This document shows, piece by piece, positions 8,918 through 63,679 of a DNA stretch of 64,000 bases; the first letter of the stretch is position 1; the number at the start of each line of letters is the position of its first letter. The notes under the pieces are model-generated. The model ran no database searches. It saw only the letters and a list, made by a program, of their open reading frames with translations, and was not told where the DNA came from. This stretch comes from an uncultured Candidatus Saccharibacteria bacterium (GTDB lineage: Bacteria; Patescibacteriota; Minisyncoccia; UBA6257): positions 161,278 to 225,277 of the forward strand of contig CAYZJA010000002.1 of NCBI GenBank assembly GCA_964479005.1. The letters run 5' to 3'. The position numbers and the translations under genes are program-made.

Positions 8918-8989
8918 GGGCGACTAGCTCAGTGGTAGAGCGCGTCTCTGATAAAGACGAGGTCACAAGTTCGATCCTTGTGTCGCCCA
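8918..8989 (+). tRNA. tRNA-Ile (anticodon GAT)
   Basis: Acceptor GGGCGAC/GTCGCCC, anticodon stem-loop CGTCT-CTGATAA-AGACG, T loop TTCGATC. This is the classical 16S-23S spacer tRNA. Confidence 0.9.
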
Positions 8990-9004
8990 CAATTTTCCTC
9001 CATC

Positions 9005-9080
9005 GGGCCCGTAGCTTAATTGGTAGAGCGCCTGTGTTGCATACAGGAGGTTGTCGGTTCGAGTCCGATCGGGTCCACCA
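9005..9080 (+). tRNA. tRNA-Ala (anticodon TGC) with G3:U70 identity pair and an encoded CCA
   Basis: Acceptor GGGCCCG/CGGGTCC includes the G3-U70 wobble. Anticodon stem-loop CCTGT-GTTGCAT-ACAGG. Ends ...ACCA. Confidence 0.9.
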
Positions 9081-9211: not shown

Positions 9212-9895
9212 ATGTTTAATACTATAGCTCAAGCTAGTTCCACTGCTTTGTTTGATTTATGGAATGGATTCATTTTGTTTTTACCTACTTTAATAGGAGG
9301 GTTTATAGTTTTTATTGTAGGTGTAATAATTGGTAATGGTATTGCCCAATTAGTAGAGAAATTGATTGATCTCTTAAAAATTGATCCAATTTTGGAAAAG
9401 GTTGGATTTAAACAAGTTACTGATAAAGCTGGCATTCGTTTAGACGTAGGATTTTTTGTAGGTCAGATTGTCAAGTGGTTAATTATCCTGTCGTTCTTAG
9501 TGGCTGCTTGCAATATCTGGAATTTGTCAGCTGTTGGTGATTTTATCAGAAGCATAGTTAATTATCTTCCAAATGTTTTAGTCGCGATCTTGATTCTTTT
9601 AGCGGCTATTGTTTTGGGAGAATATTTTGCTAAGTTTGTCCGCGCTTCTGTCGCAGGAGCTGGATTAAAATATCAGCACTTTCTAAGCGGTGTATCCCGT
9701 TGGGTATTTGTTATATTTGGACTCATAGCAGCTTTATCTCAATTACAAGTTGCTCCTTATATTATCAATACCTTCTTTACGGGAATTGTGGCTATGATGG
9801 CAATAGCCGGAGGTTTGTCATTCGGTTTAGGAGGAAAAGATTTAGCACGTGAATTATTGGCAAAGTTGAAAGGAGATTTAGAAGGAGGAGAGTAA
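9212..9895 (+). CDS. Polytopic membrane protein with internally duplicated TM-helix repeats (MscS N-terminal 'conserved TM helix'-like). Inserted between the spacer tRNAs and the 23S
   Basis: 227 aa. Two homologous halves, each with GxxxG-rich hydrophobic helices (…LIGGFIVFIVGVIIGNGIAQLVEKLIDLL… and …LVAILILLAAIVLGEYFAKFVRASV…). Confidence 0.5.
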   Translation: MFNTIAQASSTALFDLWNGFILFLPTLIGGFIVFIVGVIIGNGIAQLVEKLIDLLKIDPILEKVGFKQVTDKAGIRLDVGFFVGQIVKWLIILSFLVAACNIWNLSAVGDFIRSIVNYLPNVLVAILILLAAIVLGEYFAKFVRASVAGAGLKYQHFLSGVSRWVFVIFGLIAALSQLQVAPYIINTFFTGIVAMMAIAGGLSFGLGGKDLARELLAKLKGDLEGGE

Positions 9896-10208: not shown

Positions 10209-10852
10209 AATCCAAGATTTTCTGACAGAGAGTTCACAAGAGATGACTGAACTTTGAAAACGACTGTCTTTAGTTTGTCTTTTCACTAAAGATGGGAAAG
10301 TTGTATTAAGGGCAGATGGTGGATGCCTTGACACAGTAAGGCGATGAAGGACGCGGCGTAGCTGCGATAAGCCTCGGGAAGGTGCGTAGTAACCTTTGAT
10401 CCGGGGATTTCCGAATGGGGCAACCCATTCCGATTAATATCGGAATATCCTGATTTTAATAATTAGGAGGCGTACCTGGGGAAGTGAAACATCTCAGTAC
10501 CCAGAGGAAAAGAAAACAATAAAATACATTTTACTACTGTTGTTTAGTACTGAATAGTAGCTAAATGTATTTGTGATTCCTTGAGTAGCGGCGAGTGAAA
10601 GAGGAGAAGCCTAAACCAAGCATTCAATTTATTGAGTATTTGGGGTTATAAGGTGGATGCGCGGAAGCTTCGGCTTTCAAAATTTAAATCATAATTAATT
10701 AAATTATCTGGAAAGATAAACCACAGAGGGTGAAAGTCCCGTAGATGAAAATTATTATTGAATTTAGTATCTTTTCTTAATTACCTCGGGGACAGATAAC
10801 CTTGAGGGAAGGATCCGGAACTATACCGGAAAGGCTAAATACTTACTGTGAT

Positions 10853-10898
<46 letters not shown>

Positions 10899-12456
10899 GA
10901 GGGGAGTGAAATAGAACCTGAAACCATTTTGCCTACAAGCAATCGAAGTCGAGCACTCAGTTTTCTGAGTGCTGGATAACGGTGTGCCTATTGAAGAATG
11001 AGCCGACGAGTTTATATCTACTGCTTAGATTAATTTCGTAAATCGAAAGTAGTCATAGGGAAACCGAGTGTTAATAGCGCGTCATTAATTCTTCTTTTTA
11101 TCTCGGTTTTCGGGATAAAAAGATTAATTAAAATGTAGTGGATATGAGACCCGAAGCCAGGCGAGCTTGCCATGACCAGGATGAACCCCATAGAAATATG
11201 GGTGGAGGTCCGAACCCGTGAGCCGTTCAATACTCTGGGATGAGTTGTGGTAAGGAGTGAAAAGCTAATCGAGCCTGGGAATAGCTGGTTCTCCCCGAAA
11301 TAGCTTTAGGGCTAGCGGGCTATTTATCCTTATGGGGGTAGAGCACTGGATGGTGTGTATAGGGCGAAAGCTCAGCTCACCAATCAAACTCCGAATACCA
11401 TTAAGGTTATGATAGCCTAGTTAGACTATGGGGGCGAAGCTCCATGGTCAAAAGGCAACGAATCCAGATCGCAGTTTAAGGTCCCTAAATTTTGGTTAAG
11501 TGCTGTCAAAGGTAGTAATTTACCATAGACAATTAGTAGGTTGGCTTAGAGGTAGCCATCCTTTAAAGAGTGTGTAACAACTCACTATTCGATCTTGATC
11601 TTCGGATCAAGGTGGTAAATTGCGCCGAAAATGTATCGGGGCTAAAACCAAATACCGAAAACGCGAATTTATCCCAACTAAGGTTGGGGTGAGTGGTAGG
11701 GGAGCGTTTCTTAAGCATTGAAGTTCATAACGTGAGTTTGGATGGAGCTTAAGGAAGTGAGAATGTCGGCATGAGTAACCACAATCCTGATGAGAATTCA
11801 GGACTCCGTAAACCTAAGGTTTCTTTGGCAATGACAATCAGCCAAAGGTTAGGCGGTCCTAAGGCAATGGCGAAAGCTGCAGCCGATGGACAGCCGGTTA
11901 ATATTCCGGCCCTTCCATTTTTTTCGATGGGATGACGGAGTGTAGTAGATCGAGCATCTTAGTGGTCTGATGTCTTCGACCGAGAGTGTGTGTCAGGCAA
12001 ATCCGGCGCATGGTCCCGATTTATCGGGACAACTTTCAGGGTAGAAGCGAATTAAGGTTTTTCCTTAATAAGTTGATCGAGCGCACTTCCAAGAAAAATC
12101 TCTAAGAATAGGAAAATGGAATCCGTACCGTAAACCAACACAGGTAGGTGAGGCGAGTAGCCTCAGGAGAACGAGTGATTCCTCGTTAAGGAACTCGGCA
12201 AAAAAGCGGGCGTAACTTCGGGATAAGCCCTTCCTACCTAAATTTTGCTTGCAAAGTTTAGGCAGGGCGCAGCGAAAGTTTCCCTGGCGACTGTTTACCA
12301 AAAACACAGGTCCCTGCGAAACCGTAAGGTGATGTATAGGGGCTGATGCCTGTCCGATGCCAGAAGGTTAAGAGCGTCGGTCATTTCGATTTATCGGAAT
12401 GGCTAAGTGCTTGAAGCCCTGGTCAATGACAGCGATAACTATAATCGTTCTAAGGT

Positions 12457-13172
12457 GGGATACTGCCTTAGTAAAATTCGGCTATATGCTGGAACATCTG
12501 GTGTATCCAAGACTACTATGGTATAATATGACCATAAAAATATGAGTTATAATATACCAAGTAACAATGTTTTTGGCGCAGACAATCAGCAGGAAAGACT
12601 CAGAATTGCTTATTGGATTTTAGGCTTTACTGATGGTGAAGGATGTTTTTCAATTGCTGTGATAGAGAACAAAACTACTAAATTTGGGAAACAGATTTTT
12701 CCTGAATTTGTAATTACACAAGGAGAAAAAAGTTTAACTGCATTAAAGAAAATTAAAAAATTCTTTGGTTGCGGAAACATTTTTATCAACAAACGATATG
12801 ATAATCATAATGAGAACTTATATCGTTATTGTGTACGTTCTTTACATGACTTAGATAAGAAAATAATTCCGTTTTTTGAAAAATATCAACTCCAAACGTA
12901 TAAGCAAAATGATTTTTTAATTTTTAAAAAAGTCATAAAATTCATGATAAAGAAAGAACATTTAACTGAAAAAGGCAGAAAGAAAATTCTTGTCCTCCTC
13001 AGTAAAATGAACCATAGAAAAAAGCGATTTTGAGAATCCTCAGAGACTATATGCCGAACTCCAATATTATATTGGAGAAGATATAGTCCGAACTGCATAG
13101 CGATATGCAGAAATAAGCAGAAATGTTTATTCGACCTTTAGATTGATTTTCTAGAGGTTAGTAACAAAATTG
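12457..13172 (+). mobile_element. Group I intron in 23S at the L1931-equivalent site (between CCUAAGGU and AGCGUAAUUCC, helix 69/70 region)
   Basis: Exon homology breaks after ...CGTTCTAAGGT and resumes at AGCGTAATTCCTTGTCGGGTAA. The upstream exon ends in U and the intron ends in G. Encloses a LAGLIDADG ORF. Confidence 0.8.
12542..13033 (+). CDS. LAGLIDADG homing endonuclease (single-motif, homodimer type), encoded in intron 1
   Basis: 163 aa with motif LGFTDGEGCF near the N-terminus. Lies inside a 23S intron. Confidence 0.8.
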   Translation: MSYNIPSNNVFGADNQQERLRIAYWILGFTDGEGCFSIAVIENKTTKFGKQIFPEFVITQGEKSLTALKKIKKFFGCGNIFINKRYDNHNENLYRYCVRSLHDLDKKIIPFFEKYQLQTYKQNDFLIFKKVIKFMIKKEHLTEKGRKKILVLLSKMNHRKKRF

Positions 13173-13833
13173 AGCGTAATTCCTTGTCGGGTAATTTCCG
13201 ACGTGCATGAAAGGTATAACGACTGGGGAACTGTCTCAACGAGGAGCTCGGTGAAAATGCGTGTCCAGCGAAGACGCTGGGTACCCGCAGCAAGACGAAA
13301 AGACCCTAGAAGCTTTACTACAGCTTGGTATTGAATTTAGTTTTAATCTGCGTAGCGTAGCGGGGAGACTTTGAAGTTTCGCTTTCGGGCGAGATGGAGT
13401 CGCCAATGAAACACCCGTCTTTTTGAAGCTATGTTCTAATCCCGACGGCAAAAACGTCGTGAGACAGTGCCTGGTGGGTAGTTTTCGTGGGGCGCGATCC
13501 TCCTAAAGAGTAACGGAGGAGCCTACTAAGGTTGGCTATCTGCCAATGGAAACGGCAGAGGTAGTGTAAAGGCAAAAGCCAGCTTTATAGTGAGGGAGAC
13601 ATCCCAAACTATTGCGAAAGCAGAGCTTAGTGACCCGATACGTCATTGTAGAATGCGTAGAGACGTCGGATAAAAGCTACTCTAGGGATAACAGGCTGGT
13701 GGAGCCCGAAAGTTCATATCGACGGCTCCGCTCGGCACCTCGATGTCGGCTCATCTTATCCTGGGGCTGAAGAAGGTCCCAAGGGTTTGGCTGTTCGCCA
13801 ATTAAAAAGATACGCGAGCTGGGTTCAGACCGT

Positions 13834-14561
13834 CGATTTGGCGGCCTAGAAGAGTAATCTTCTATGGAAAAAGTTGACTCATATAGATGAAACCCTATTA
13901 CATAAATTGTATTTTAACCTGTCGTGTGGTAGGATAATATCTAGGGAAGTTTAACTTTTTTAAACGTGAAACATCTTTCAAAGACTCAATGTGCTTATAT
14001 CGCTGGGTTTTTAGATGGTGACGGAAGTCTTTATATTAGGATTAAACCTAATAAGGATTATCGGTTTAACTATCAAATAGCCCCCAATATAGTATTTTAT
14101 CAATCCCAAAAAGGATGGTTATTTCTTCAGAAAATTAAAAAAATGATTAGCGCTGGTTATATGAGAAAAAGAAATGACGGGATTGCAGAATATATTATTG
14201 GTGATGTAGCAACAATGTCTTCTTTGTTGAAGCAAATATCTTCATTTCTGATATTTAAAAAGAAACAAGCACAATTGTTTCTAAGAATTCTTCAAAAGAA
14301 AACAAAGGTAAAAACAAAAGAAGATTTTATAGCTTTAGCTATAATGATTGATAAATTGGAAAAATTAAATTATTCCAAAAAAAGGCGCATTACTTCGCAA
14401 GTTGTTATCAACACGTTAAAAAAGTTGTAACCCCTTAGAGACTTGTTCTGGTTTTTACCAGAACGGAATAGAGATTTTTAATCTCTATTAATACGTCAAC
14501 CTCCTAATAAAATATTAGGATGATGGTATAGTCCATACATAAAGTAATTTATGATTATATG
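13834..14561 (+). mobile_element. Group I intron in 23S at the L2593-equivalent site (I-CreI target: ...GACCGU^CGUGAGACAG, in the peptidyl-transferase loop)
   Basis: Exon ...GGGTTCAGACCGT | intron | CGTGAGACAGGTCGG. The junction U/G rule is satisfied with the intron ending ...ATATG. Encloses a LAGLIDADG ORF. Confidence 0.8.
13966..14430 (+). CDS. LAGLIDADG homing endonuclease (I-CreI-like size), encoded in intron 2
   Basis: 154 aa with motif IAGFLDGDGS at residues 11-20. Lies inside a 23S intron at the I-CreI homing site. Confidence 0.8.
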   Translation: MKHLSKTQCAYIAGFLDGDGSLYIRIKPNKDYRFNYQIAPNIVFYQSQKGWLFLQKIKKMISAGYMRKRNDGIAEYIIGDVATMSSLLKQISSFLIFKKKQAQLFLRILQKKTKVKTKEDFIALAIMIDKLEKLNYSKKRRITSQVVINTLKKL

Positions 14562-14703
14562 CGTGAGACAGGTCGGCCTCTATCTGCTGTGGGCGTTCGA
14601 TACTTGAGGAGAGCTGATCGCAGTACGAGAGGACCCGATTGGACGAACCTCTGGTCTACCGGTTGTCCTGCCAAGGGCATCGCCGGGTAGCTATGTTCGG
14701 AAG

Positions 14704-14736
<33 letters not shown>

Positions 14737-14898
14737 CACTCCAAGATTAGGTATCGTTTCCCATTTATGGGAGTGAGATTCCTGGAAGATGACCAGGTTG
14801 ATAGGCTCTAGGTGGAAGTCCAGTAATGGATTAAGCCGAGGAGTACTAATTATCAAAGCAACTTTCCTATCTTTAGTGAAAAGAAATATTTTAAAATT

Positions 14899-15008
14899 CC
14901 GCTGGTGTTTTACTTAATTATGGTCCACCTCTTCCCATTCCGAACAGAGAAGTGAAAGTAATTAAGCCCGATGATACTCTTTTGGGGAAAGTAGGGTATG
15001 CCAGCGGT
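14899..15008 (+). rRNA. rrf: 5S ribosomal RNA
   Basis: Helix I CCGCTGGTG...GCCAGCGG, loop motifs CCGAACAGAGAAGTGAAAG and GGGAAAGTAGGGTATGCC. Sits 38 nt after the 23S 3' end. Confidence 0.85.
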
Positions 15009-63518: not shown

Positions 63519-63679
63519 TAAAACACGTTTATTTTAAGGTAAATAAACGTGTTTTAATTTCAACGTTCTCGAGCGAAGCGAGAGGTTGTTATAATATCTA
63601 TTACCTTACTTTATAAGGTGCTCTTTGATAATTTAATAGTTAATAAGTTCAATCTTTTCTGGTTATTCCAAGATCTTAA

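Follow-up and report, generated by a model that had tools for sequence, protein, structure and literature searches.

Group I introns inserted at positions L1931 and L2593 in rRNA of the large subunit (LSU), each encoding a single-motif LAGLIDADG protein, have been described in Synechococcus lividus C1 and Synechococcus sp. C9 (666-675 and 744-748 nt, with proteins of 159-189 aa), and in S. lividus C1 both are found in one 23S gene (Haugen 2007, PMC1995217). L1931 introns are also listed in Thermotoga and Simkania (654-700 nt, with single-motif LAGLIDADG ORFs of 143-162 aa; Table 1 of PMC1995217) and an L2593 intron in Thermosynechococcus (PMC1995217). Among bacteria of the candidate phyla radiation (CPR), 82% of the 23S genes carry insertions, and LAGLIDADG_1 genes predominate in those at 1917, 1931, 1952, 2593, 2604 and 2657 (Tsurumaki 2024, PMC11270868). 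Here, the 23S rRNA gene in a 64,000-nt stretch of DNA (the window: positions 161,278 to 225,277 of contig CAYZJA010000002.1, assembly GCA_964479005.1, from an uncultured Candidatus Saccharibacteria bacterium) was found to be interrupted at the same pair of sites. The sites and boundaries of the inserts, their intact open reading frames (ORFs) with the families of these, and a ribozyme core backed by covariation are directly established, and we estimate at roughly 90% the probability that the inserts at L1931 and L2593 are mobile group I introns, each with its own LAGLIDADG homing endonuclease.

The 23S rRNA gene was recognized by the Rfam family LSU_rRNA_bacteria (1852.9 bits, start at 10296), and window positions 10296-14870 were aligned with MAFFT to an annotated Escherichia coli rrl copy (L001 571-3473, 2903 nt). 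No insertion in this alignment is longer than 54 nt except those of 716 and 728 nt. The numbering of the E. coli copy equals the canonical numbering minus 1, as judged from the landmark motifs CCUAAGGUAGCG and GGAUAACAGG, the sarcin-ricin loop and GAACGUCGUGAGACAG, whose canonical positions we take to be those familiar from the literature; therefore, the insertions follow U1931 and U2593, in helix 69-71 and in the peptidyl-transferase loop, respectively. Two inserts at exactly these sites had been claimed in the original prediction, made by reading the sequence, and this is borne out to the base: the borders are T12456/G12457...G13172/A13173 for intron 1 and T13833/C13834...G14561/C14562 for intron 2, and the span 12457-14561 runs precisely from the first base of the former to the last base of the latter. 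An exon U directly before the intron, its U.G pair at the splice site and a G as last intron base are present in both cases, in accordance with the group I junction rule invoked earlier, whereas the 5' exon of intron 1 had been misread, its sequence being UCUAAGGU and not CCUAAGGU. The predicted ligated exon junctions are UCUAAGGU-AGCGUAAU at L1931 and GACCGU-CGUGAGAC at L2593. The Rfam LSU match ends at 13864, inside intron 2, though it is given as full length (model 1-2925), and 23S homology, as read from the sequence, picks up again at 14562 and extends to ~14860; as a result, ~300 nt of exon would be missing from an automatically annotated 23S gene.

The assignment of both inserts to group I is supported by their putative ribozyme cores. 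The covariance-model check proposed in the original prediction succeeded in part: a Rfam scan of the window detected no group I intron at the gathering threshold, and what RF00028 (Intron_gpI, threshold 50 bits) returned below it were local, partial matches to the halves on either side of the ORFs, with 32.1 bits at 14440-14554 and 22.0 bits at 13823-14006 in intron 2 and 26.6 bits (E 1.2e-4) at 12973-13110 in intron 1, the last aligning J6/7-P7-P3'-P8-P7'-P9. The scores remain below the threshold because an ORF of 460-490 nt splits each ribozyme core; the Rfam group I model classed just 45% of the CPR 23S insertions (PMC11270868). The core was tested on fixed-length segments by pair counts of our own, a 460-nt loop exceeding the search span of the covariance model, and pairing was compared with a control in which the 3' partner was slid by 1-3 positions. 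The part of the check that held is the core itself: covariation among same-site relatives supports a P3-P9 arrangement in canonical order, with the P3/P7 pseudoknot, in both introns. The P7 region reads AGAGACU...GAUAUAGUC or GGUAUAGUC in the two introns, like the Rfam consensus aAGACUA...AAGAUAUAGUC, and guanosine binding is predicted for it.

For intron 1, P3 is formed by UUCGGC/GCCGAA, P4 by UGCUGG/UCAGCA and P5, which is extended by P5a and P5b, by UCUG/CAGA, and the guide sequence GCCUUA of P1 is conserved among L1931 relatives. The stop codon is followed by P6', AGAGACU (P7), P3', P8, AAGAUAUAGUCC (P7'), P9, two hairpins and the terminal G. Over 52 distinct same-site introns, 96.2% of the cells in 37 pairs can pair, as compared to 31-41% with slid partners; 22 of the 37 pairs show changes on both sides, and P3, P5, P6, P7, P8 and P9 covary. 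Covariation of P5a is visible in the L1931 family alignment as well, and a G-C pair of P7 is replaced by A-U in eight family members. An earlier candidate for P7 of this intron, CCAAGACUAC (~12506-12515), was dropped, since the post-ORF AGAGACUAUAU pairs with UAUAGUC and precedes the covarying P3' strand.

For intron 2, P1 and P2 were placed from the Rfam alignment and the L2593 family alignment, with AGACCGU(CG) pairing with (UG)GCGGCCU in P1. The order of elements in the L2593 family is P1, a short P2 with a GNRA loop, P3, P4, P5, P6 enclosing the ORF, and, immediately downstream of the stop codon, the conserved GUAGAGACU (J6/7-P7), followed by variable P7.1 and P7.2, P3', P8, GGUAUAGUCC (J8/7-P7'), P9 with a GNRA loop and the terminal G, which is present in nearly all of 74 relatives. 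A placement of P7 by Rfam at GACU, inside the start of ORF2 (match 13823-14006), was rejected given that the family J6/7-P7 GUAGAGACU follows the stop codon and the ORF lies in the P6 loop. Pairing amounts to 93.1% of the cells in 35 pairs among 69 distinct same-site introns, versus 30-45% with partners slid; 21 of the 35 pairs have changed on both sides, and P3, P4, P6 and P8 covary. The stop codon of the L2593 family (loci L009-L088 of our collection) falls inside the P6 3' strand (window 14428-14434), where UGA, UAA and UAG change together with GUC, GUU and GCU of the 5' strand (13944-13951); the same nucleotides are therefore constrained both as stop codon and as helix. The P5 loop of the same loci, equivalent to 13902-13925, contains a strongly conserved stretch, AACCUGUCGUAUG, outside the assigned helices, which may be a tertiary contact.

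Together, these data are in agreement with the earlier claim that both inserts are group I introns. Removal of the inserts by RNase III as intervening sequences, or their descent from group II introns, has next to no probability. It is true that short intervening sequences occur at other sites in CPR 23S genes (PMC11270868) and that the 23S gene of the window has further insertions of 20-54 nt; the two inserts discussed here, however, are of ~720 nt, contain ORFs, sit at classic group I sites (1931 and 2593) and display P1-P9 with covariation, all of which differs from an RNase III-type intervening sequence. Rfam scans of the window gave no match to a group II family, and group II introns were not found in CPR 23S genes either (PMC11270868).

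Some observations weigh against two mobile, spliced group I introns. Besides the Rfam scores below threshold, P7 of intron 2 never varies and P4 of intron 1 is invariant, so that covariation is uninformative at both; P10 comprises just 2 bp in both introns; ORF2 starts with GTG and no obvious ribosome-binding site was seen in front of it; and excision is a prediction from sequence. Moreover, by our own boundary assignment a terminal G is present in 38 of 60 distinct L1931 relatives and absent from the other 22, and canonical splicing need not be universal in this family, to judge from these sequences. The L1931 intron of Simkania reportedly stays unspliced, going by the title of a 1999 paper by Everett, while the Thermotoga introns are said, in the title of a 2003 paper by Nesbo and Doolittle, to self-splice. 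It might hence be argued that the inserts, although of group I origin, are retained in mature 23S rRNA, or are excised without ligation to give a fragmented 23S rRNA, and the unspliced Simkania intron, the sizeable subfamily without terminal G and the weak P10 would all fit such a scenario. We regard it as highly improbable: neither window intron has lost its U.G splice-site pair or its terminal G, and each has a full core under compensatory selection; ~700 additional nt would be difficult to accommodate in helix 69-71 or the peptidyl-transferase loop; and the introduction of PMC11270868 reports that insertions in CPR rRNA are eliminated from the transcripts.

The 22 L1931 introns without terminal G (among loci L089-L168, e.g., L108, L109 and L116) end in A or U at the structurally equivalent position, and most of them have a 5' extension of ~100 nt, part of which is complementary to the 5' exon (UCGUCCUAA / UUGGGACGA). 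It may be that such introns rely on a non-canonical 3' splice site or are not spliced at all. A precedent for a missing terminal G is reportedly found in the Coxiella L1917 intron, said in a paper title to lack omega-G.

With regard to architecture, both window introns agree with what has been published on their Synechococcus counterparts at L1931 and L2593 (PMC1995217). Absence of P2, a complex P5 and an ORF running into the core characterize the Synechococcus L1931 intron, and all are present here, with the difference that the published host is a thermophilic cyanobacterium and the one studied here is of CPR/Patescibacteria type; the likeness is drawn from the published description. The introns of Thermotoga and Simkania are similar in being bacterial 23S L1931 group I introns that carry single-motif LAGLIDADG ORFs.

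ORF1 and ORF2 are the only long plus-strand ORFs inside the inserts. A single-motif LAGLIDADG protein of about 160 aa had been predicted for each, which stands once the lengths are corrected to 163 and 154 aa and the motifs are given as ILGFTDGEGCF and IAGFLDGDGS. Both belong to Pfam LAGLIDADG_1 (PF00961; cut-off 23.1 bits), with 86.9 bits (E 1.9e-24) for ORF1 and 41.9 bits (E 2e-10) for ORF2, and each has one motif with its acidic residue (GFTDGEG and GFLDGDG, respectively). ORF1, for which ~3000 homologues were found, matched each half of the monomeric endonucleases I-PanMI, I-SmaMI and I-OnuI in the PDB (E 1e-44 to 1e-30) and shares 38% identity and the stretch NQQER with I-ShaI. The latter is the one CPR rRNA-intron endonuclease characterised biochemically; it forms dimers and cleaves in vitro targets containing this rDNA region (PMC11270868). 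The I-ShaI target oligonucleotide (30+30 nt) is centred 8 nt upstream (ACUGU/UCUAAGG, near 1923), whereas the Kazan target is centred at 1931. ORF1 begins within the P5 extension and continues across P5a', P5', J5/4, P4' and P6, and the N-terminal peptide ADNQQER of L1931 endonucleases is invariant because the ORF reads through this part of the ribozyme core (UUGGCGCAGACAAUCAGCAGGAAAG, window 12573-12597); conservation of the protein at ADNQQER would thus be, at least partly, RNA constraint.

A characterized relative of ORF2, I-CreI, is encoded at the same site, L2593, in the Cr.LSU intron of the Chlamydomonas reinhardtii chloroplast; this intron belongs to subgroup IA3, and its P6 loop likewise houses the ORF. 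By phmmer, ORF2 matched I-CreI (E ~2e-26 over residues 6-151), as well as I-MsoI and I-CvuI, in the PDB, and a BLASTP comparison with I-CreI gave 37% identity (E 7e-33). Alignment by eye equates K28, N30, Y33, Q38, R68, R70, D20 and K98 of I-CreI, which we take to be DNA-contact and catalytic residues, with K27, N29, Y32, Q37, R67, R69, D19 and K98 of ORF2. In an alignment of 12 diverse relatives, D19, Q46 and K98 of ORF2 are invariant, and these align with D20, Q47 and K98 of I-CreI, presumably residues of the catalytic site. Judged by this similarity, ORF2 is a member of the I-CreI/I-MsoI family and lies, as noted in the original prediction, at the I-CreI site, with the differences that Q26, S32 and Q44 are not kept and that the host is bacterial.

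Intron-less target sites are predicted as TAATCGTTCTAAGGT/AGCGTAATTCCTTGT for ORF1 and TCAGACCGT/CGTGAGACAGGTCGG for ORF2 (the slash marking the insertion point), with TAATCGTTCTAAGGTAGCGTAATTCCTTGT and GTTCAGACCGTCGTGAGACAGGTCGG, respectively, as the corresponding intron-less rDNA stretches. The intron-less L2593 site TCAGACCGTCGTGAGACAGGTCGG agrees with the I-CreI target TCAAAACGTCGTGAGACAGTTTGG at 20 of 24 positions and differs at four. That ORF2 might be an isoschizomer of I-CreI is plausible from this comparison, and the original prediction went beyond the evidence in using the term. The ORFs could also have ceased to be active endonucleases, or not act solely as such, being either decaying remnants or maturases that aid folding of the intron RNA. 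According to the homing cycle, the endonuclease gene is expected to decay after fixation of the intron (PMC1995217), endonuclease and maturase functions are combined in some LAGLIDADG proteins (Belfort 2003, by title), and the overlap of ORF1 with the ribozyme core means that part of its conservation is RNA constraint. We nevertheless consider this unlikely, as both ORFs are of full length with the acidic residue of the motif intact, the three residues of ORF2 named above are invariant, intact homologues number in the thousands and, for the related I-ShaI, target cleavage was observed in vitro.

For the two introns as mobile group I elements, we propose that each would fold into a group I ribozyme within the pre-23S RNA, with P1 presenting the exon U in a U.G wobble and the P3/P7 pseudoknot core binding guanosine, which would attack after the wobble-paired U. 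Subsequently, the terminal G would dock in P7 and set the 3' splice site, and ligation of the exons would join helix 69-71 and the peptidyl-transferase loop. The intron-encoded proteins would, as homodimers, cut intron-less rDNA across the insertion site, and repair would copy the intron into the intron-less allele (homing). Splicing, dimerisation, DNA cleavage and homing are what we infer from the respective families, and the earlier wording that mature 23S rRNA can form only after two self-splicing events goes beyond the evidence.

A scan of species-representative genomes with the ORF2 alignment listed 600 candidate stretches, of which relatives were confirmed in 548; a relative of ORF2 is thus present in at least 548 species genomes, almost all of Patescibacteria/CPR. 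The placement of the window's host in the CPR is based on the taxonomy of the homologues. Of the loci fetched, 74 of 80 from the ORF2 scan have the gene between ...ACCGU and CGUGAGACAG, i.e., exactly at L2593, and 64 of 80 from a metagenome scan with ORF1 have it between ...CUAAGGU and AGCGAAAUUCC, i.e., at L1931. After reassignment of five exon-variant sequences to the uninterrupted class, site 1931 was uninterrupted in ~29 and interrupted in 12 of the L2593-bearing loci in which it is visible, and site 2593 was uninterrupted in ~23 and interrupted in 14 of the L1931-bearing loci. Occupancy of the two sites is independent, and such a patchy distribution fits what would be expected of mobile elements. 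About 20 of the 80 L2593-intron loci derive from assemblies titled 'uncultured Candidatus Saccharibacteria' (L014, L017, L020, L021, L036, L041, L060 and others); the 23S genes of Saccharibacteria are given as free of insertions in the 2024 survey (PMC11270868). A few others are titled Gammaproteobacteria, Bdellovibrionales or Draconibacterium. These unexpected titles could be due to labelling, mis-binning or real spread, and a comparison of exon identity aimed at mis-binning of the loci with the latter three titles did not discriminate. The coordinates of all features are collected in Table 1.

Table 1. Features of the 23S rRNA region in window coordinates; intron helices are predicted.
Feature	Positions	Strand	Details
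23S rRNA gene	10296-~14860	+	From Rfam, E. coli rrl alignment and sequence reading; 3' end approximate
23S exons	10296-12456, 13173-13833, 14562-~14860	+	Spliced length ~3.1 kb
Intron 1 (group I, L1931)	12457-13172	+	716 nt; inserted after U1931; without P2, P5 extended; terminal G 13172
Intron 1 P1	12450-12471	+	Exon CUAAGGU (12450-12456) with guide GCCUUAG (12465-12471); U12456.G12465 wobble
Intron 1 core, 5' half	12477-12594	+	P3 5' strand 12477-12482; P4 12487-12492/12586-12591; P5 12497-12500/12579-12582; P5a 12507-12510/12573-12576; P5b hairpin 12517-12536; P6 5' strand 12592-12594
ORF1	12542-13033	+	163 aa; single-motif LAGLIDADG (ILGFTDGEGCF)
Intron 1 core, 3' half	13037-13172	+	P6 3' strand 13037-13039; P7 13045-13049/13084-13088; P3 3' strand 13053-13058; P8 13059-13077; P9 13093-13110 (GCGA loop); P9.1 13112-13131; P9.2 13134-13158; terminal G 13172
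Intron 2 (group I, L2593)	13834-14561	+	728 nt; inserted after U2593; short P2, ORF in P6 loop, P7.1, P7.2; terminal G 14561
Intron 2, 5' half	13827-13951	+	P1 13827-13835/13839-13847 (U13833.G13841); P2 hairpin 13847-13864 (GUAA loop); P3 5' strand 13873-13878; P4 13884-13889/13938-13943; P5 13894-13901/13926-13933; P6 5' strand 13944-13951
ORF2	13966-14430	+	154 aa; GTG start; IAGFLDGDGS; stop UAA 14428-14430 overlaps P6 3' strand
Intron 2, 3' half	14429-14561	+	P6 3' strand 14429-14434; P7 14440-14443/14530-14533; P7.1 14445-14464; P7.2 14468-14488; P3 3' strand 14495-14500; P8 14502-14520; P9 14538-14553 (GUAA loop); terminal G 14561
5S rRNA gene	14900-15007	+	Downstream of 23S; Rfam 5S_rRNA, 57.9 bits

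Besides the two introns, the alignment to E. coli rrl revealed five smaller insertions of 20-54 nt in domains I-III of the 23S rRNA (10520-10570, 10640-10693, 11082-11127, 11593-11613 and 12011-12035), which may represent either expansion segments or short intervening sequences. The rRNA genes do not lie together: the 16S gene starts at 63676, and the 23S gene is preceded by those for tRNA-Ile and tRNA-Ala (8918-9080), with a protein gene (9212-9895; mechanosensitive-channel transmembrane domain) located between these and the 23S gene.

The arrangement described here is already known from CPR bacteria and cyanobacteria, and the window is a typical case of it. In practice, rRNA predictors truncate this 23S gene, and the intron ORFs usually remain unnamed in public records. 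The family alignments could be used to seed improved covariance models for those L1931 and L2593 introns that contain ORFs; the generic Rfam model misses or under-scores them. Furthermore, a more far-reaching and quite unlikely proposal is that, in this reduced genome, the introns are not just selfish elements but have endonucleases that double as maturases, so that 23S maturation would depend on translation of the intron proteins, and, independently of this, that ORF2 and its at least 548 same-site relatives form a natural series of I-CreI-like enzymes with specificity shifted at -9, -7, +8 and +10. If the maturase part of it were true, ribosome supply would be tied to translation of intron proteins, a built-in feedback on ribosome biogenesis. 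As it stands, the locus raises no new question and provides one more instance of CPR rRNA genes being rich in homing-endonuclease introns.

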